Source: an uncultured Pseudomonadota bacterium (lineage in GTDB: Bacteria > Oederibacteriota > Muellerivitia > Muellerivitales > Muellerivitaceae). From it: 64,000 nt of DNA. Shown one piece after another: positions 1,083-46,115 of the stretch (positions are counted from its first letter, which is position 1; each line of letters begins with the position of its first letter). Location of the stretch: positions 224,001-288,000 of the forward strand of contig CAWJKT010000009.1 in the NCBI GenBank assembly GCA_963843375.1, read 5' to 3'. The notes under the pieces were generated by a model, which saw only the letters and a list, made by a program, of their open reading frames with translations, was not told the origin of the DNA and did not search any database. A program made the position numbers and the translations under genes.

Positions 1083-2168
1083 ATGATTGATTTCGCGCGT
1101 GATAACAACATAAACCCTGTCAAACCCGTAAATGCCGGCGTCCACGAAACGCTGGCCAAGACCGCCTATTTCTTTCACCGTAAGGGGGACGCCCTTTTTA
1201 TTTCCAGCCGGTTCCAGGAAGCTGTGGCCGCCTTCCAAAAGAGTCTGGAGGCCTACCAAGCGGAAGGGGATTCCCAAGGCGCGGGGCTTTGCCTGACGCG
1301 GCTGGGGCGGTCGCTTGAAATCCTTGGTGAGTATGAACAGGCCCGCCAACGCTACGTGGAAAGTTTGAAAATTTTCCAGGAAACCAGAGACTCGCAGGGC
1401 ATAGCGCGAAGCAAGGCCCACCTGGGTAACGTGGGTTGGGCCACGGGCGATTACCAGGAGGCGTCCAACTTTTTACAGGAGGCTTTGGCGTTTTATAAAG
1501 AGGGGGAGGATAGGGCGGGGGAGGCTTGGGTCCATGATTTGATGGGCAACTTGAGGCTAGCCATGCGCGAGGACGGGAAGGCTGAAAGCCATTACCAGAC
1601 GGCCTACGCCCTGGCTCAAGAACTGGGCGACAACCTGCAGTTGGAGGCTTGGAATCATTACCACTTGGGGGCCGTGGCCCTTTTCCGGGGTCAAATTGTT
1701 GGAGCCCGGGAACGCTTCTCCAAAGCTCTCGAATATTTCGTGCGGCTGAACGACGACCTGGGGCAAGTGGCCACCTTGATCCATCTAGGTGAGATCGCTT
1801 GCGCGCAGAAAAACATGGAGGAAGCGGAGGAACATCTACTCAAGGCCGTTCAGATGGTTCTTCCCACCGAGTGCAAACCACTTTTGGCGGACGCCCTAAC
1901 CGGGTTGGCCCAAAACCTGAAGGCAAAGGGGGAGGGCCGCAAGGCCATCAGCCTTCTCATGGTGGCTCTTTCCCATCCCACTTGCCGGCGACAGACCAAG
2001 GACCGGATGGTCGACTTGGTCTTGCAATTGGAATCCAATTTTGTTCGCGAGGAAGTGAAGGACGGCTTCAAGTGGGCCAAAGCCGTGAGCCTTGAGGAAA
2101 TGGCTGCCGCTTGGATGTCCGCCGCGTTGAAAGAAAAGCCCAAAACCAAGAGGAAGAAGACCACCTAA
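1083..2168 (+). CDS. Tetratricopeptide-repeat protein
   Basis: Tandem TPR-like helices (LG...G.Y..A...Y..SL); AGGAGG RBS upstream. Confidence 0.8.
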   Translation: MIDFARDNNINPVKPVNAGVHETLAKTAYFFHRKGDALFISSRFQEAVAAFQKSLEAYQAEGDSQGAGLCLTRLGRSLEILGEYEQARQRYVESLKIFQETRDSQGIARSKAHLGNVGWATGDYQEASNFLQEALAFYKEGEDRAGEAWVHDLMGNLRLAMREDGKAESHYQTAYALAQELGDNLQLEAWNHYHLGAVALFRGQIVGARERFSKALEYFVRLNDDLGQVATLIHLGEIACAQKNMEEAEEHLLKAVQMVLPTECKPLLADALTGLAQNLKAKGEGRKAISLLMVALSHPTCRRQTKDRMVDLVLQLESNFVREEVKDGFKWAKAVSLEEMAAAWMSAALKEKPKTKRKKTT

Positions 2169-22361: not shown

Positions 22362-25300
22362 ATGAAGCATAGGGCCGGTTGGATCCTTTTTTTAAAAAGG
22401 GCAGTAAAATCGTTTTGGGTTTTGCTCTTCATCGCCAACGCCCCAAAGGTTTTTGCTGATTACACCTGGGAAGGAGTGCCTTCCGGTTATGGGCTGGCCT
22501 GGAGCGACGAGTTCAATGGTTCGGTCGGAAGCGCCCCCAATTCCGCCAATTGGAGCTATGTCACAGGTACTGACTGTTGTGGAAATAACGAGTTGGAAAA
22601 TTATACGACCAGTACGGCCAATTCCCAGATCGTGGCCGATCCCAACGCGATAGGCGGCCAAGCCCTGGCCATCATCGCCTTGGATCCGGGCGGCAATAAC
22701 GATGCGGCCGGCGATTACACTTCCGCCCGGCTGGTCTCTTCCGTGGGTTCAACCCCGAACAATAATTGGCAATATGGTTACATGGAAGCCAGGGTCAAGA
22801 TGCCCTATGGGGACGGCATCTGGCCGGCCTTTTGGATGATGGGCAATAATATCAATTCGGGCACGGCCTGGCCCACCTGCGGCGAGATCGATATCATGGA
22901 AAACATCGGGAACGCCGCAACCTATAACGGCAACCCACCTGACCAGGCCAACAACCACGGGTCCCTTCACGAAGGGCCTTCTTCCTCCGACGTGGTTTCG
23001 GCCACCGATATTTTTACCCTGGCCGGGCCCCAGCTCTTTCACAACGCCTACCATACCTTCGCCGTCAATTGGCAGGCCAACGAGATCCAGTTCTACGTGG
23101 ATGGGAACCTTTATGAAACGGATACTTCCTCGTCCCTAACCGGCGCCACTTGGGCGTTCAACAACAGTTTTTTTTACCTGTTGAATTTGGCGGTTGGCGG
23201 CACTTGTCCGGGCAATCCGGATGTCTCGACTTCTTTCCCGCAAACCATGTTCGTCAATTATGTGCGGACCTACCAGACAGGCAAACCCACCCCCACACCG
23301 GTGGTCCAGTCCACCTGGCGGGTGCATTGCGGTGGGGACAATTACACCGACGGCGACGGCAACCTCTGGGTGGCGGACACGAATTTCACGGGGGGCTGGC
23401 CTTCCTACGGCAGTACGGCCGCCTCGGGTACGGTGCTTCCCACCTCCAGGCGACTCGTTGCTTTACCAGTACCAAAGGTATGGGAACACGACGGGCGGGG
23501 AAACGGTCACCTATACCTTCAACGTGCACGCCGGCTCCACTTACCAGGTGGACCTGAAATTCGACGAGACCAATTCGACCGGGCCCAATCAGCGGCAGTT
23601 CAACTACTCGATCAACGGCGCGACAGAGGCCACGAACTTCGACATTTATGCCACGGCCGGAGGCGCCAACAAGGCTTTGGATGAGGTTTACAATAATATC
23701 TCGCCGAACTCCAGCGGCCAAATCGTCATCCAGTTCACCCAAGGGGCCTATGGCAACCCGACAGTGGGAGCCATTCAAGTCATTCAGACTTCATCGACCT
23801 CTACGCCTACCCTAACATCCACGGCAACGTTCACTACGACCTCCACTCCTTCCAGGACAAGCACGCCCACCCTCACTTTTACCGGGACCTATACACACAC
23901 CTTCACCCCCACCAATACTCCCACGGACAGCCCCACTTTTACCGCCACAGTTACAAGAATGAATACGGCCACCAATACTGTGACCAATAGCCCCACCGCA
24001 ACGGCCACCTCAACCCCCACGGCCATCCCGACCAAAACGCCGACGAGCACGGCCACTTCTAGCGTCACCAGCACGGCCTCCGCCACACCCACGAACACTT
24101 TTGGCAATACGGCCACGAATACCCCTGCTTCAACCCCCTCGAGTACCGACACCGGTACTTCTACAGCTACCGACTCAAACACCGCCACCAAGACGACCAC
24201 TTCCACACCGACGAGCACGGCCACTTCCAGCCCCACAATTACCTCATCCTCAACGCCCACCAAAACGACGACGGCGACCCTCACGGATACCCTAGCCAAC
24301 ACGGTCACTCAAACCGCCACGGCAACCGATACTCCCACTTCCACCATCTCAAACACCCCGATCAAAACCACGACTTTGACTCCCACGCTCACTCCCACAG
24401 CCTCCACCACTGCCACGGCTACCAACAGCTCGACGGTTACCCCGATCTTCACGGCCACAAATACCCAGCCCCCCACAGCCTCTAATACTTCGTCCCTGAC
24501 GGCATCGAGCACCCCCACGGAAACCTCCACCTTCTCAGTCACCCTCAGCCCCACTACAACACCCACCAATACCGGGACCATTCCTCCCGCCAATTCGGCC
24601 ACCCCCACCCCCACCCTTACGCCCACCAGTAGCCCTACCACTATCCCCACCAACAGCCCGACCAATTCACCCACGTTCACGCCGACTTTCACGCCCACGG
24701 CCTCCAGCAGCCCCACCGGGACTCCCACAGGCACCTCCACCAACAGTCCCACTTCCACCACCACCCATTCCCCGTCCGTCACGCCCACCAATAGCTCATC
24801 GCCGACGCCTATGAATACACTCACTCCAACGCCAATTCTTACTGCCACTCTGACTCCGACGTTAAGCCCAACGAATACGGCTTTCACGGCGACTTTCTCG
24901 CCTACTGGAACGCAAACCAACAATGCAACGGGAACCCCCACGGCGACTCAGCTCACGAACACGCCCACCCCAACCCCCACGGTCACCTTCACCCCAACCT
25001 CCACCAATAGGAGTACCATGACATTTACGGTGTCAAATACTCCCACGAGCGCGACCACTTACAGCCCCACATACCCTTTAACGAATACCCTCACTCCAAC
25101 ACAAACTCTTACCGTCACCATGACTCCGACATTAAGCCTAACGATTGCGCCGACGTTCACTCCGACCCCCGCCATGACAGGAGTCGTGATTGGCCTCCCC
25201 TTTCCAAACCCCGTTTTCGGCGAAGGGCCCGTGTTTGTTCGGGTGCAGGCCGCTTCCGGCTCAAAGGTGGAATTAAGCATCTTTACGTCGGCCTTTCGCA

Positions 25301-25467
25301 AGGTCCTGGACATTCCCAGTCCCGTTCAGGGTGATAAAATGACACTTAATTGGGATCTGGATGATGCTTGGGGAAATCCCGTGGCAAATGGCCTTTACTA
25401 CCTGAGGGTTCAGGTTTCCGATCCGGTCATTACCTCCAAAATCCTGAAGGTCCTTGTCATTCGGTAA
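22362..25467 (+). CDS. Secreted GH16 glycoside hydrolase + malectin-like domain + long Thr/Pro linker + C-terminal Ig-like domain; one-base frameshift near 23445
   Basis: WSDEF, WPAFWM, GEIDIME (GH16); WRVHCGG..YTD..GN.W.AD continues in the next frame as LYQYQRYG...V.LKF.E...RQF (malectin). Confidence 0.82.
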
Positions 25468-25526
25468 GACAAGTTTCACTGAAACCAAAAATATTTTTCT
25501 AATAAAATAAAATTAAATCGAATTCT

Positions 25527-25554
25527 TGTCCACGGCGGGGAGGTATAGTAAACA
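25527..25554 (+). repeat. 28-bp site 5
   Basis: TGTCCACGGCGGG-GA-GGTATAGTAAACA. Confidence 0.8.
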
Positions 25555-25719
25555 ATAATTTTTTCAATACCTTGGCTGCTTCTTCATCCTCATCCTGAAC
25601 AAAAAGCGCTATTTATTATCAATTTTATTGTTGCCTCCCCTCCCCCCCACTACTAAACTTCCTCATGCTAAATTCTTTTCAACACCTTTAACCGCCCAAT
25701 TCGAGTCAAAGATATTTCA

Positions 25720-26982
25720 ATGAAGATTCAAATCGTAGGGCTTTTTTCGCTTCTCGTTGGAGTCGGCTTTTTAACCCTCGGTTGTCCATCCAAAAGTAAC
25801 AGCCCTTCTAGCCCAGCTGCGCCGACTAATATTTCCACTCCAATCATTACCAATACGCCGACCAACACTAGCACCAACACCGCCACGGGAACGGCAACGG
25901 GGACACCAACCAAAACCGCCACACCTACCAGCAGCGGCACGCCTACCAATTCGCCAACGTCCACTCCCTCGGGCACCCCGACCAACAGCGCTACGAATAC
26001 CGCGACCGCGACGATCACTAACACGCCGACGATTACCCCCACATCCACCCAAACGGGTACACCAACGAACAGCGCTACTGTTACGCCGACCTTTACGATA
26101 ACGAGCACAGCGACCGTTACCGCCACCAGCACACCCACCAACTCGCTTAGCGCTTTCGCGACTATTGGCAGCGATGGTAAAACTTTATTTAACTATCCCA
26201 TGGGTATTCAATACCTAGGAGGTTATTTATGGATGGCGGATACAAATGGCCTTGGGTCCCCGAATTTTCAAGAATGGGTCACGAATGGAACCAGTCCCGT
26301 GACGAACATGACAATTTATAATGGATCGGCATCGTTTCAGGCTCCCTGGGGTGTGGGCATTGATTCCGCCACTGGAAATGTCTATGTGACGGATGAAGTT
26401 GCGGGTCAAATTGATGTTTTCAACTCCGCCGGGACTTACCTTACCAATTTTGGAAGCACCTATTTAGACAAGGGCTTCTTGGGCGTGGCCTTAAACTCGG
26501 CGGGGACGACGGTTTATGCTCTCACGTCAGATTCTATTATTTATATTGTTTCCGTTACCCCCGGTTCGATCCCCACTTATACCCTTCAAACAGGCTTTGG
26601 CCAATCGGGGTCTGTAGCATCGTATAAGCTTCTTTCCCCTCAAAATTTGAGAGTAGACGGAAATGGATATGTTTGGGTGGCGGATCAAGGAAACCATCGA
26701 GTGGCGGAATACACCGGAGCGGGGATTTATAACCTCACATCCTTTATTACGGTAACCAGCCTTGCCAATCCTTTTATGCCCTCGGATGTATTGGTGGACA
26801 GCTCTGGTAACGTCTACGCTACGGATAATGAAAATAATTATGTCGTGGAATTTAATTCATCCGGCACGCAAATAGGCCAATTTGGGGAGGGGATTTTATA
26901 TGGACCCAATGGCATTACCACGGATGGGGCTGGTAATTTTTACGTAACAGATTCAAGTCCTCAAATAGTGGGGTTTCATTAA
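25720..26982 (+). CDS. Lipoprotein with Thr/Pro-rich stalk and NHL-repeat beta-propeller
   Basis: Lipobox [39 protein letters not shown]. Confidence 0.8.
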
Positions 26983-27007
26983 GAATTAACTCAGAAGAAA
27001 GTTGGTC

Positions 27008-28336
27008 ATGAAGTTATACCTCATAGGGCTTGTTTCGCTTCTCCTTGGGATAGGCTTTTTAACCCTCGGCTGTCCTGGCAAAAATAATCCCTCCAGCCCC
27101 TCTGCACCTGCTCCTGTGCAAGCTACGCCCACTTTTACACAAGCTTGCTGGGTGGGTACTTCCCCTACTTGTACTCCGTACGTTACTCCGATTGGTATAA
27201 CAACCCCAACCGGTTATTACGTGACCGGCACTGTTAACTATACCGGCTCTCGAGGATCGGTTAATTCAACGAATTATTTGTACGTGGCATTAGCGAATTC
27301 CAGTTTTAATTTCGTCTCGGGCGAAGATATTGCCATGAATGGCGGGACCTATCAAATTTACGCTTCTTCAGCAGGAACTTATTATCTAGGGGCATTTTAT
27401 ATTAACGTTAGTGAACCGCATATTTATTATCCCTCTACTTGTATAGAACCTGGGGCGGGAATCACCATAAATGGGGGGGTTGCAGGAATCGATTTGTCAT
27501 TTGGGGATAGTTGCACCTTTAGTACGCCATCTCCTACTCTTGGGTCGTCGACTTTGACCGCCACTCCTACCAACCAAACACCTGTCGCCACGCTGACCTT
27601 TACTCCGACGATCACGCCTACCTTCAACTACACTTGGACGGCATCCAACACGCCGACGAATACCTACCCGCCGGGAACGAATACTCCCACCCGTGTGCCC
27701 ACCAACACACCCACTCCAACACCTACCGGCACTTTAATCATTATTTATCCGACCGCTACACCGACGGAAACGGACACCCCCACCGAAACCGAAACTTCGA
27801 CCGTCACTGATACGCCGACGGATACCTGGCCGCCAGGAACGGACACGCCCACGGCCCAAGCCACGGATACTCCCACCGAAACGCCCACGGACACGGAATT
27901 TGAAGTCGACATACCGACCGGCACCCCTACAGATACTGAAACCGATACGGCTACCCACACGCCCACTGAAACTGTTACCCCTACTCCCACGGTCACCGAC
28001 ACATCCACGATTACCGATACCCCCACCAATACGCCGACTCCTGGCGCCACCTATAGTGTTTATTTCACGGCATCGGGAACTGCCGGTGTCGAATATGAAA
28101 TTGTTTACAGTTCTGTTATTTCCGGAGCGGTTACCGCCGTTGTTTATACAGGCACTTTAAACGGTGGGAATTGGACCTCCCCGACAGTCGATTTTCCTGG
28201 AGATACCGAAGTTGGTATTTCCGCCGGGGGTGTTACCAGCACAAATTCAATTACGGTAAACCTTTATGTCGACGATGTTTTGGAAGGGACAGGTACTAGC
28301 TCCAGCGGCGCACCCGTTTCCTATCTATTGCCTTAA
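27008..28336 (+). CDS. Thr/Pro-rich lipoprotein, unknown function
   Basis: Lipobox LTLGC; same leader family as 25720 and 36276; TPT(D/E) repeats. Confidence 0.75.
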
Positions 28337-28485: not shown

Positions 28486-28513
28486 TGTTCCATACGGGGA
28501 CCCGGATTGGACA
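28486..28513 (+). repeat. 28-bp site 6 (carries the intron-binding site)
   Basis: TGTTCCATACGGG-GA-CCCGGATTGGACA. Confidence 0.85.
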
Positions 28514-29296
28514 GCGTGCCAGGATCAAGGATGCAGCAGCCAGCAGGTGCGGTTCGATATGAACCAAGTCCTGACGGGGTAACCGCCCGAGGGCCCCGAA
28601 GTCAACCTCCGTGGCAAAGTCGAGAGGCCTTGTCCGAAACGAGGTCATAAACCTTCGAAAGGAAGGGAACAATACTACAGTCCGTAACATGAAGTGAATC
28701 CTGCCGCGTCGTGACGAGTCCGCCGAAAGGCTATAGGGGAGGCCGAGCCGCGTGTCCAACGGCGAAGGCAACAATCTCATCCTGAAACGGGATTGGGTGG
28801 GGTAAATCCTCCGGCGTATTGGGAGCGGAATGTTGGAAAGGCTGGTGCATCAACCTGGGAGATCCTACCCGTTAAAAGAGCGGCTCCTATAAGGGCGACC
28901 GAAAGGGAGACGTGACGGGAGGAAGTCGGAGGGGGAAATAGTACCGCTTAGAGGGGGAGGACAACAAAACCTCACCTGAGGGAAGGTCCCCTGCTTCAAC
29001 CATGTGCCTTCAAGAAGGGTGGCGCTGGAGAATGCCGGAAACGGCTAATAACTCTGAAGGTCAAAAGCGCGTAATCTTCAACAAGCACTATGCCGAACGG
29101 CCAAGGGAAGTAGAACCTGTAAAGCCGTCGGAGAAAAGGTTGTCGGAAAGCCGTATGATCGAAAAGGTCACGTACGGTTTGATGAGGGGGCGTTGGAAAC
29201 GAAGTGATGAGGGAACCTAGTTGGGGCACGGAACCGGAAACGGGGAAACAGATCAAGGGGCCCTCTGCACACAACCGCGCCAGCGCTCTACTCTAC
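28514..29296 (+). mobile_element. ORF-less group II intron (IEP deleted)
   Basis: 5' GCGTG; EBS1 stem-loop GCCG-cgTGTCCAA-CGGC at 28747-28763; domain V AAAGCCGTATGATCGAAAAGGTCACGTACGGTTT at 29147-29180; domain VI ending CTCTACTCTAC; no RT ORF. Confidence 0.88.
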
Positions 29297-29415: not shown

Positions 29416-30186
29416 ATGAAACAACCCGTCGTTATTGTTACCGGAGCCAGTCAGGGCATTGGTCGTGCCACAGCCATAAGACTAGCCGCTGATTTTAAGG
29501 CCGTGGTTCTCGGGGCCCGGAACGAGGAGGGCCTCAACGAGACGGCCAAGTCGGTCCAATCCGCCGGAGCGGAGCCCCTGGTCCTGCCGCTGGATTTACG
29601 CCAGGGCGAAGCAGCCAAGACCCTCGTGGACAAAACTCTGGAAAATTTCGGCCGGATCGACGCTCTGGTAAACATAGCGGGGGCCGTGCCCCAAATCGAC
29701 CTTTTGGAAATGACGGACGCCCAATGGGACGATGGAATGGCGCTCAAACTTCACGGCGCCCGGCGAGTGACAATTCATGCGTGGGAAGCACTGAAAAAAT
29801 CCAAGGGTTCGGTGGTATTCACCTCGGGCAACTCGGCCCTGGCGCCCAAGTCGGCCTTTGCCGCCGTAGCCGTCACCAATGCGGCCATTGTGGCCTTGGC
29901 CAAAGCCTTCGCGGAACGGGGGATCAAGGATGGCGTTCAGGTAAATAGTGTCCTGCCCGGGCCTGTGTTCACCAATCGCCGAAAAACCTACATGGAAAAA
30001 TACGCCCCCCTGCACAACATGACAGTGGAAGAGGCGCTTGAAAAATTTCCCGCCGAGGCGGGCATTACCCGATACGGTCAGCCAGAGGACATCGCTAACT
30101 TGATGGCGTTTTTGGTTTCCGCGGAAGGGAAGTGGATGACCGGCTCGGCAGTTCGAATGGACGGCGGCGAGATCAAGGCGGTCTAG
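29416..30186 (+). CDS. SDR family oxidoreductase
   Basis: TGASQGIG, GRIDALVN.AG, VNSVLPG, TGSAVRMDGG. Confidence 0.92.
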   Translation: MKQPVVIVTGASQGIGRATAIRLAADFKAVVLGARNEEGLNETAKSVQSAGAEPLVLPLDLRQGEAAKTLVDKTLENFGRIDALVNIAGAVPQIDLLEMTDAQWDDGMALKLHGARRVTIHAWEALKKSKGSVVFTSGNSALAPKSAFAAVAVTNAAIVALAKAFAERGIKDGVQVNSVLPGPVFTNRRKTYMEKYAPLHNMTVEEALEKFPAEAGITRYGQPEDIANLMAFLVSAEGKWMTGSAVRMDGGEIKAV

Positions 30187-36023: not shown

Positions 36024-36275
36024 ATAAATGCTTCAATAATTTAAATAAGTTTAAATTGCATGGTTTGTTTTAAAGGGCTGGGGGGGATTAACCGGAGCGG
36101 ATTGGTCGCGGGCCCAAAATGGAAAATGGAGACTGGGCCCGTTTTTATTGAATAAAATCACCTTTTAATTTGTTGGCTAATTTCCTTGACTGTCACCTTT
36201 TTTGCTAATAAGATTCCCCCCAGTTAAATGGTTTCCCATGCTTTTCCCCTCCCCATATCATGCCAAGGTGGTCCC

Positions 36276-37541
36276 ATGAGATTTCGAATCTTAGGATTAT
36301 TTTCCCTTTTGGTGGGAATGACTTTTTTAACCCTCGGTTGCCCATCCAAGTCCAACAGCCCCTCCGGCCCTACCGCTCCCGCGCCGACTAATACGCCCGC
36401 CGTAACATCCACGCCTACCAACACCGCGACCATTACGTCTTCTTCCACCCCTACTGGAACACCCACCAAAACCGGCACCCCAACCCTTACTGGAACACCC
36501 ACCAACACAGCCACTGCCAGCCCCACCGCCACGATCACCCCGACACCCACGATCACCGCGACCGCCACGATCACCAATACACCGACTGATTCCGCTACTT
36601 CCACCCAAACCGGAACGTCCACTGACACGGCCACAGTCTCACCCACCGCCACGGTCACCAGTACCCCAACCAACAGCCTAAGCCCCACCCCGACGGGTAC
36701 GCCGACCGATAGCCCCAGTCCCACTCCGACCGGCACACCGACCAATACCTTCCAATTCACGCCCACGGCCACGCCTAGCGCCACCACTACCGAAACCCCC
36801 AGTTTGACTCCGACCAGCAGCCCCACACCAACTCCCAACTGCACGGGTTCCTATTCCATATCCGGAAACGTGGATTACACGGGCTCGACGGTTTCGGGCA
36901 ACAGCGTGGCGGTGCTTATCATTTCACAACCCGACCTTGGCGGCGGCAGCGGTGATGGTTGTAACCCATTCTCCTCCGTCCTCGGAACCACGCCTGGGAG
37001 CTATTCCTACAACATCTCCACTATTCCCTCGGGCAGTTTTTACGTTGTTGGGGTTTACGGAACATTCGGAAGCAACGGACCCAACCTGGGGGATTACGTT
37101 GGGGACTACGGCAACGATTGTCCCCTCACGGGTTCCACCTTGGTGGCCCTCTCCAGCGGCAATCCCAGCGCGAGCAATGTCGGCGTGACCTTCGGCAACA
37201 CTTGGACGCTTTGGGGCATCAACGCGACCGTCAACTACAGCGGATCACAAACCAACGGTGAAATCTATGTCGGGCTCTTTTCCGCGGTCAATGTTGGCGC
37301 CGGAACTTACACCCAAATTACGAATACCGGCGTCAATTCTTCGGGCCAGACAAAAACCCTCATCGATCAAATCAATAGCTGTGGCTCGACGGGCGCGTCC
37401 GTTTACGTGATTGGATGGTACGGCAGCAATCCCAACGGGCCGAACGCGGGGGACAATTACGTTGAGTTCTCCACCACCGAGGTGAACAACCCAACGACGA
37501 CGACAACCGTTAATATCAGCAGCTCCGCGACTTGGCCATAA
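36276..37541 (+). CDS. Thr/Pro-rich lipoprotein with Cys-containing beta-rich C-terminal domains
   Basis: Lipobox LTLGC, long TPT stalk; same leader family as 25720 and 27008. Confidence 0.78.
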
Positions 37542-44763: not shown

Positions 44764-44906
44764 TCTCAATGTCGGTCGGTGATCGGGGAGGACATTTTTT
44801 GATTCTCATCCCAGGCTTCGGTCCGTTTCTCTCTTTTCCCCGTCCCCCAAAATCCCTAGTCAGAATCGCAAGTAGCGCCTTTTGAAATGTTGCAATGCAA
44901 GTATCT

Positions 44907-44991
44907 TGTCCACGGCGGGGACCCCGTTCGGCTCCCTTTGGTCGCTCAGGGCAAATTATAAGTCGTCCAATCTGGGGACCCTGATTGGACA
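44907..44991 (+). repeat. Composite junction: half site + REP-like mini-module + 28-bp site 20 (44964-44991)
   Basis: TGTCCACGGCGGGGACCC-CGTTCGGCTCCCTTTGGTCGCTCAGGGCAAATTATAAGT-CGTCCAATCTGGG-GA-CCCTGATTGGACA. Confidence 0.85.
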
Positions 44992-45056
44992 GATGAGAAG
45001 TAAGAAATATCTCGCTTGGATTGAATTTAAAGGGATGAATCTAAAAGAGGCCTCCT

Positions 45057-45971: not shown

Positions 45972-45991
45972 GTATTAACGGTTGCAAAGCT

Positions 45992-46076
45992 TGTCCACGA
46001 CGGCGACCCCGTTCGACTCGCTAAGCTCGCTCAGGGCAAATGATAGGTCGTCCAATCTGGGGACCCGGAGTGGACA
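45992..46076 (+). repeat. Composite junction: half site + REP-like mini-module + 28-bp site 21 (46049-46076)
   Basis: TGTCCACGACGGCGACCC-CGTTCGACTCGCTAAGCTCGCTCAGGGCAAATGATAGGT-CGTCCAATCTGGG-GA-CCCGGAGTGGACA. Confidence 0.85.
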
Positions 46077-46115
46077 GAAGAAAAAAGGATTGAATTTCTT
46101 GTTTAATGTCGCGAG

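Follow-up and report, generated by a model that had tools for sequence, protein, structure and literature searches.

The 64,000-nt stretch of DNA analysed here (the window; positions 224,001 to 288,000 of contig CAWJKT010000009.1, assembly GCA_963843375.1, from an uncultured bacterium) carries a cassette array at 19.2-47.8 kb (window 19174-47844) that is flanked by polysaccharide genes. The array genes, which include MazF, PIN/VapB, BrnA, GNAT, SDR and penicillin-amidase genes, lie mostly on the + strand, and the cassettes are rich in toxin-antitoxin genes. A 28-bp palindrome marks the cassette boundaries, and one of its copies, TGTTCCATACGGGGACCCGGATTGGACA, is immediately followed by a group II intron of 783 nt that lacks an open reading frame (ORF). 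An original prediction, made from the sequence alone, held that this intron pairs with the palindrome through its exon-binding site 1 (EBS1), belongs to a lineage specialised on this site and is mobilised in trans. Here, we examine the intron, its relatives and their common target.

The 28-bp site has an 11+6+11 layout, which is the format of Xer/dif core sites, and comes with two types of right arm, CGTCGTGGACA and GGATTGGACA. A 19-mer of the site finds 10 matches with up to 3 mismatches in the window, compared with 0.05 expected, and the genome as a whole (G000) contains 71 sites that differ from TGTCCACGACGGGGACCCGTCGTGGACA at up to 7 positions and group into arrays on contigs C6, C9, C10 and C18. 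At the level of the order, 26 of 32 genomes and 14 of 18 genera contain the site, and a reversed-pattern control gave 0 matches, in keeping with the predicted abundance and long life of the element. Since it also occurs in genomes without an intron match (e.g., G002, G005 and G011), the site is older and more widespread than the introns that parasitise it. No integrase gene was found beside the array within window 11.6-51.9 kb, and none of the 14 Phage_integrase matches of the genome falls into the window.

Two Rfam group II models match the intron above their thresholds, i.e., RF02003 (group-II-D1D4-4; 61.6 bits, cut-off 49, E 4e-11) and RF00029 (domains V and VI, clan CL00102; 29146-29296, 45.1 bits, cut-off 40). 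The intron starts with GCGTG (28514) at the first base past the site, as had been proposed; the sequence directly after the site begins GCGTGCCAGG. At the other end CTCTAC is followed by AACAAAT. While the 3' terminal AC fits the group II consensus AY, the 5' end GCGUG differs from GUGYG; relatives read UCGUG or the canonical GUGUG (G024) at the same position. A 5' boundary two bases later (GUGCC) was rejected, as unoccupied sites are never followed by GC and the G024 intron reads GUGUG at the first position. In an RNAalifold consensus of 15 introns from two lineages, domain I is closed by a CCAG/CUGG helix whose 5' strand occupies intron positions 6-9. The minimum free energy (MFE) fold of domain V contains an AGC triad (29149-29151), a 2-nt bulge and a 5-bp distal stem, and its sequence aligns to the general domain V consensus of Rfam with a single 1-nt gap. 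Domain VI is long (MFE fold z -2.7). In its basal helix, A29290 forms a bulge 7 nt before the 3' end, a feature that the MFE and centroid folds have in common. Covariance-model search and folding thus agree with the prediction that domains V and VI are intact, and show a complete ribozyme scaffold consisting of domain I with EBS1, domain V with its AGC triad and domain VI with a bulged A.

The predicted EBS1 lies in the hairpin GCCG-CG-TGTCCAA-CGGC, which the consensus fold of the two lineages places as a terminal stem-loop in the 3' half of domain I, as expected of an EBS1 loop in domain ID. Its loop UGUCCAA forms 7/7 Watson-Crick pairs with TTGGACA, the last seven bases of the site and hence intron-binding site 1 (IBS1). 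To follow this pairing among relatives, we used an alignment of 10 exon bases and 275 intron bases from 16 relatives (15 distinct rows). Here, 98.1% of the IBS1-EBS1 cells are paired, compared with 27-42% in controls with the partners slid by 1-3 columns. Two of the seven pairs vary on both sides and three on one side only: position -7 is G-C in 10 rows, U-A in 3, A-U in 1 and G-U in 1, and position -6 is U-A in 13 and A-U in 2. Examples are UGUCCAC:GUGGACA (L009, L010 and L054), UGUCUAC:GUAGACA (L024 and L029) and UGUCUAU:AUGGGCA (L030). The covariation score was matched by 0 of 500 shuffles, a control that ignores relatedness, so that this figure is not to be read as a probability. Because the loop is placed in a terminal domain I hairpin and covaries with the 5' exon, its assignment as EBS1 is supported by the comparison of relatives, and the complementarity to the array site stands as originally proposed.

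A scan of 11 introns at 3 offsets for 6-nt complements to exon positions -8 to -15 gave no consistent EBS2. Of two candidates that were rejected, GACGGG (4 introns) lies inside a conserved Rfam helix and does not track the exon in the window or in the other subfamily, and CCUCCGGCG (28809-28817) is invariant regardless of the exon. On the 3' side, by reading of the junctions, about 17 of 18 exons in the lineage of the window intron (lineage 1) start with A, and 43 of 69 unoccupied sites in this genome are followed by A. This is weakly consistent with an EBS3-IBS3 pair, the copies being kin.

Of the 32 genomes of the order, 12 contain intron matches, at most 17 in any one genome. For a census of the retrieved loci we required an upstream flank of 28 nt or more and an EBS1 hairpin recognisable within 330 nt, which yielded 23 distinct junctions from 7 genomes of this FCPU426 family. 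Twenty-one of these junctions lie directly 3' of a 28-bp site (20 with up to 7 mismatches and 1 with 9), and all 21 show 7/7 standard EBS1-IBS1 pairs, as expected of a lineage specialised on the site. The other two (L052 and L053) follow ...AATGACACGwATATGACA, where the EBS1 UGUCUUA pairs with UAUGACA at 6/7 positions. Left out of the census were L002 (EBS1 not assembled), L003 (truncated), L032 (locus ends), L040 (26 nt of flank, likewise a site) and L037/L014. The latter have a longer domain I and are inserted after ...CCGCATGGG, with the EBS1 UUCAUGC facing GCAUGGG, and represent a third retargeting. Homologues at unrelated sequences ending in TGGACA, which would speak against specialisation, were not seen in this set: L052, L053 and L037 do not follow TGGACA, and their EBS1 has changed to match. 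Furthermore, relatives that encode a reverse transcriptase (RT), namely L021, L054 and L041-L055, have the same palindrome as their 5' exon. As judged from the aligned junctions, the comparison shows that relatives from several genera are inserted at one and the same phosphodiester of the site. The sites of L024 and L029 are in reverse orientation (central GGGTCCCC) and are still used; therefore, it is the arm that is read and not the asymmetric centre.

A second copy of the window intron is found in the same genome on contig C18 (59734; L002 1501-1650, G000:C18:59762-), after a different site ending in GGATTGGACA. It is 100% identical over the 104 nt assembled and then runs into poly-T and foreign-looking high-GC sequence, which probably reflects a chimeric join made in assembly at the repeat. 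In this genome, the UGUCCAA intron is found at TTGGACA sites in both of its copies, although such sites make up 10 of the 71 (GTGGACA, 36). The EBS1 of this sub-lineage is tuned to the minority variant of the right arm, GGATTGGACA, at which both known copies reside. On contig C6, a fragment of about 150 nt from the 5' end of a 77%-related intron (L003 about 1487-1650, minus strand) follows a degenerate site with the end CGTCGTGGACA, and its RF02003 score of 24.5 bits stays below the cut-off.

A second intron lineage uses the same palindrome in another register. Its representative in this genome, which lies outside the window (G000:C9:135166-137106; L008 1167-3107), is 1.94 kb long (GUGCG...CCCUAC), matches the D1-D4-4 model at 119 bits and encodes a 434-aa protein with RVT_1 and GIIM domains. 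It splits the site after base 11, leaving TGTCCACGACG upstream and AGGAGCCATCGTGGACA downstream, and the homologous hairpin presents the loop CGUCGUGG, complementary to CCACGACG. We located lineage 2 at 22 places in 8 of the 32 genomes. Fifteen of these places follow GTCCACGA(C/T)G and 2 follow the variant GTCGTCGACG; at 1 the site is present with an unclear boundary, 1 lies after the 3' end of another copy, 1 has no flank, and of the remaining 2, found at other sequences, L127 has a new loop that matches its flank (GAAGGG:CCCUUC). Judging from these flanks, the two related lineages share one site but insert into it in different registers, lineage 1 after base 28 and lineage 2 after base 11. 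A tandem of lineage-2 introns was observed at L122/L126 (G009:C7), where the 3' end CCCUAC abuts the 5' end GCGCGUCCAG of the next copy.

The original prediction had drawn on group IIC-attC introns, which parasitise the attC sites of integrons. The intron-encoded proteins (IEPs) of both lineages have class IIC RTs as their best matches among solved structures (7uim, 7e-66, and 6ar1, 2e-65, compared with 4e-46 for 6me0), there is no endonuclease (En) domain, no EBS2 was found, and a hairpin stands in place of IBS2. From this, the window intron could be read as related to IIC or IIC-attC introns, with the palindrome recognised structurally, as a DNA hairpin, and with only a short IBS1, in the manner of IIC introns at terminators and attC sites. 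The RNA argues otherwise. The criteria for class IIC given in the available text of Toor et al. (2006; PMC1702495) are CGC in domain V, a domain V distal stem 2 bp shorter than in IIA/IIB and an EBS1-IBS1 pairing of 3-4 bp; the CGC criterion also appears in the available part of PMC7923331, together with the insertion of IIC-attC introns into the attC bottom strand, opposite to cassette transcription. Here, the triad is AGC, the distal stem of 5 bp is not shortened, and the pairing comprises 7 bp and covaries out to -7. Moreover, IBS1 lies within the 3' arm of the hairpin, not 3-11 nt behind a stem-loop; intron, site and flanking genes (27002-28336 and 29416-30186) are all on the + strand, opposite to the IIC-attC orientation; and some copies have been retargeted to sequences that are not palindromic. 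Of five IIC features tested, the intron lacks four, and we regard targeting of the IIC type as highly improbable. Because its RNA departs from class IIC in these features, the intron is, by sequence, filed as En-less and IIB-like. The comparison with IIC-attC introns thus holds as an analogy and not as class membership. As for the proteins, the nearest outside relatives of a lineage-1 IEP (432 aa) are found in Vicinamibacteria metagenome-assembled genomes (MAGs) at 51-62% identity. The D1-D4-4 type is common to Vicinamibacteria and Cryomorphaceae relatives, and the D1-D4-6 type is used by those in Paracoccaceae, Sorangium and Labrys, where the IEPs are related at 36-40% identity.

According to the available text of PMC4424553, the target specificities of bacterial introns are homing sites, terminators and attC, the last two being tied to class C. 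What the window intron shares with the IIC-attC introns (S.ma.I2 and relatives), as portrayed there and in the accessible part of PMC7923331, is an En-less IEP lineage on repeated, hairpin-forming cassette sites that leaves coding regions untouched. It differs in the AGC triad and normal domain V, in a 7-bp covarying EBS1 instead of 3-4 bp, in its sense orientation relative to the cassette genes, in an IBS1 inside the hairpin arm and in its target, a 28-bp 11+6+11 palindrome without the R''/R' cores of attC. Terminator-type IIC introns such as B.h.I1 (PMC1702495, available part) likewise insert by an inverted repeat outside genes and lack EBS2, but differ in the IIC features on which the window intron fails. 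PMC7923331 also describes one IIB1/CL1 intron directly behind an attC in sense orientation. UHB.I2 resembles the window intron in being non-IIC with an AGC triad, in lying directly behind a cassette recombination site in the orientation of the cassettes, and in residing in an array rich in toxin-antitoxin genes. However, UHB.I2 occurs as one copy with an ORF at an integron attC, and its homologues have poorly conserved exons, whereas the window intron belongs to a clade with dozens of copies, EBS1/IBS1 covariation, the Rfam D1-D4-4 type, another family of sites and an ORF-less, non-autonomous branch.

The loss of the ORF can be traced in domain IV, which spans about 220 nt. The prediction of a degenerate IEP start in this domain was right; the proposed length of about 115 nt was not, the recognisable remnant measuring about 82 nt. 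This remnant (MPETANNSE..., compared with MPEKANNSE... in a full-length relative) reads MPETANNSEGQKR vs MPEKANNSEDKVR, retains the first ~27 codons with a frameshift after about codon 13, and has no Pfam domain left; the part of domain IV upstream of it is likewise preserved. The junction of a 1.2-kb deletion lies at about 29113-29121, where the remnant frame joins the last ~25 nt before domain V. ORF-bearing relatives (L052, L021, L041, L037 and L054) have ~1.2 kb between query positions about 592-597 and 608-622, and the ORF-less copies of five genomes (L009; L010/L020; L011 and L022; L013; the window) align unbroken across the junction. As judged from these alignments, the common break-points show the loss to be one old, shared deletion of ~1.2 kb. 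In genome G025 alone, ORF-less copies account for 10 rows, which lie at different places and have the same or almost the same score. The lineage-1 IEPs have 428-432 aa with RVT_1 and GIIM and no endonuclease domain by Pfam; tblastn matches over residues 1-431 or 8-432 were found at L038, L039, L048 and L052-L054 (one MAG record), and in other genomes of the family, full-length relatives with an ORF have ORF-less or related copies next to them.

This situation recalls the TeI3 introns of Thermosynechococcus elongatus (Mohr, Ghanem & Lambowitz 2010, PMC2882425), for which the available text reports 17 ORF-less introns that share one deletion with the same break-points and ORF remnants and are mobilised by driver IEPs. 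In both cases a single ancestral deletion in domain IV left ORF remnants, and several copies are found at different sites with good EBS/IBS pairing; TeI3 introns depend, according to that text, on the IEPs of full-length relatives. A related driver IEP gene in the same genome, as in TeI3, was not found here: the sole GIIM match in the 80%-complete assembly is the lineage-2 IEP on C9, which is 36% identical to a lineage-1 IEP. Furthermore, TeI3/TeI4 introns are described there as CL/IIB with En-containing IEPs within one genome, whereas the ORF-less form studied here is found in genomes of five genera and targets one repeated palindrome. Because the ORF loss is one old, shared deletion and about ten copies stand in one genome, as with TeI3, mobilisation in trans is the best reading, even though the 80%-complete assembly shows no cognate RT.

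In three other soil samples, contigs carry the C18-type 5' flank followed by the whole intron, and in two of these samples a second 3' flank appears that is not in the G000 assembly. Across these contigs one variable base was seen inside the intron (28618). They therefore suggest at least two nearly identical full copies in this population.

On this evidence, we consider it very probable that the window intron, non-autonomous and without an ORF, derives from a group II lineage of candidate phylum FCPU426 that is IIB-like and endonuclease-less, and that it homes to the 28-bp palindrome. The intron RNA would be excised from read-through transcripts of the cassette array, in which it lies in sense between two + strand genes, and would be bound by an RT/maturase supplied by a full-length relative; the retained ORF start in domain IV may be the region bound by this protein. 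The RNA would then reverse-splice into DNA sites whose right arm matches EBS1 and which continue with A. As the protein family has no endonuclease domain, cDNA synthesis is proposed to be primed at replication forks.

Several points weigh against this reading. Without EBS2, 7 bp plus 1 bp is little information for an IIB-like intron, and the left arm of the window intron's own site is degenerate, with 7 mismatches to the consensus over the whole site. The sample contigs may be chimeric across the repeat, and the pairing of their flanks is not told. No contig bridging an empty site was found in four sequencing runs, in which current mobility was thus not observed. Other such points suit the view that the element is a dead fossil, which lost its ORF and is now immobile and perhaps non-splicing, its position recording where an autonomous ancestor landed: a lineage-1 RT gene was not found in the 80%-complete assembly, the GCGUG 5' end departs from GUGYG, and no RNA run was found to contain the intron stretch, so that splicing was not observed; to these one may add the frameshifted ORF remnant and the truncated, related 5' fragment decaying after another site on C6. 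A fossil is hard to reconcile with the recurrence of one deletion form at different sites, in five genomes or more and some 10 times within G025, with the intact domains V and VI and EBS1 hairpin, with an EBS1 that perfectly matches the minority site variant at both copies, and with two population copies that differ at one seen position at most. We thus regard it as quite unlikely.

A further idea concerns the left arm of the palindrome. The segment GCCGCGUCGUGA contains the core CGUCGUG, which is complementary to CACGACG in the left arm of the site; it is kept in all lineage-1 copies, unchanged in the retargeted ones and absent from lineage 2. Recognition might hence be bipartite, with EBS1 (UGUCCAC/A) invading the right arm and CGUCGUG, ~45 nt upstream, the left arm, so that a hairpin or cruciform is opened and EBS2 is replaced. 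The introns would then be more than passengers, reading a new, non-integron type of cassette recombination site in a way not seen before. The sister lineage would reverse-splice at the 11/12 boundary between arm and spacer, where the cut of a tyrosine recombinase would be expected, and both lineages would compete with, or report on, the single-stranded or extruded form of the site on which its recombinase acts. We consider this proposal unlikely and offer it as a speculation.

In a literature search of limited scope, group II introns at cassette palindromes of the Xer/dif-like or non-integron kind were not reported in any paper, and the 28-bp palindrome itself is undescribed in the literature searched. 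The habit is known mainly from integron-invading introns, and the comparison well supports what varies here, namely another ribozyme type and a non-integron palindrome. Homing into the recombination sites of cassette arrays would thus not be confined to class IIC or to integrons, as a different ribozyme type in an uncultured soil phylum appears to target a 28-bp palindrome by ordinary EBS1 pairing. The clade offers several natural retargeting events, with EBS1 sequences that follow the variants of the arm and a single site used in two registers, and its ORF-less form would constitute a cross-genus non-autonomous family. The introns also provide independent evidence of the age, abundance and accessibility of the site as a target, with which the direct site counts agree. 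In practical terms, the introns can serve as markers of cassette boundaries, and their copies may interrupt an assembly, as happened on contig C18. The features of the window intron and its target are collected in Table 1.

Table 1. Target site, intron and intron subfeatures in window coordinates.
Feature	Position	Strand	Basis
28-bp cassette-boundary site, 11+6+11, variant TGTTCCATACG GGGACC CGGATTGGACA	28486..28513	+	Repeat search; last 7 bases (28507-28513, TTGGACA) are IBS1
ORF-less group II intron, 5' GCGUG...CUCUAC 3'	28514..29296	+	Rfam; boundaries from the junctions of 23 relatives and common 3' ends
Domain I closing helix, 5' strand CCAG, pairs with CUGG 28855-28858	28519..28522	+	RNAalifold, 15 introns
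Domain I core, subdomains IA-IC	28556..28692	+	Rfam group-II-D1D4-4
Lineage-specific segment GCCGCGUCGUGA	28703..28714	+	In all lineage-1 copies, in none of lineage 2
EBS1 hairpin, stem GCCG/CGGC, EBS1 UGUCCAA 28753-28759	28747..28763	+	Consensus fold, pairing, covariation
IEP reading-frame remnant in domain IV, ~27 codons	29032..29113	+	Alignment to full-length relatives
Domain V	29148..29180	+	Rfam and fold
Extended domain VI, bulged A 29290 as candidate branch point, 3' end UAC	29184..29296	+	MFE fold, Rfam alignment
3' exon first base A, candidate IBS3	29297	+	3' junctions of lineage-1 relatives

Some further observations concern the relatives and the array. G028:C42, considered as an RT-bearing version of the intron, was rejected as such, being a twintron with another intron (GUGUGCUGGG...) inserted at query 429/430; in this twintron (L012 about 777, L023), the host copy is ORF-less and 91% identical, and the inserted RT frame is split into 212 + 211 aa. 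The retargeted full-length lineage-1 intron at L052 (773-856 and 983) lies ~125 nt behind a tRNA gene, and its non-palindromic target sequence is common to L053. Within the array, a 95-nt composite repeat occurs at window 44905-44999 and 45990-46084; the two copies are 86% alike, and the repeat contains one truncated and one complete site, separated by 57 nt, which may represent a cassette boundary that has fused or decayed. Finally, several genes at window 23194-28336 and 36228-37541 contain long Thr/Pro-rich ACN-CCN repeats, and three of the Thr/Pro-repeat genes have paralogous, signal-like N-terminal starts (25720, 27008 and 36276).

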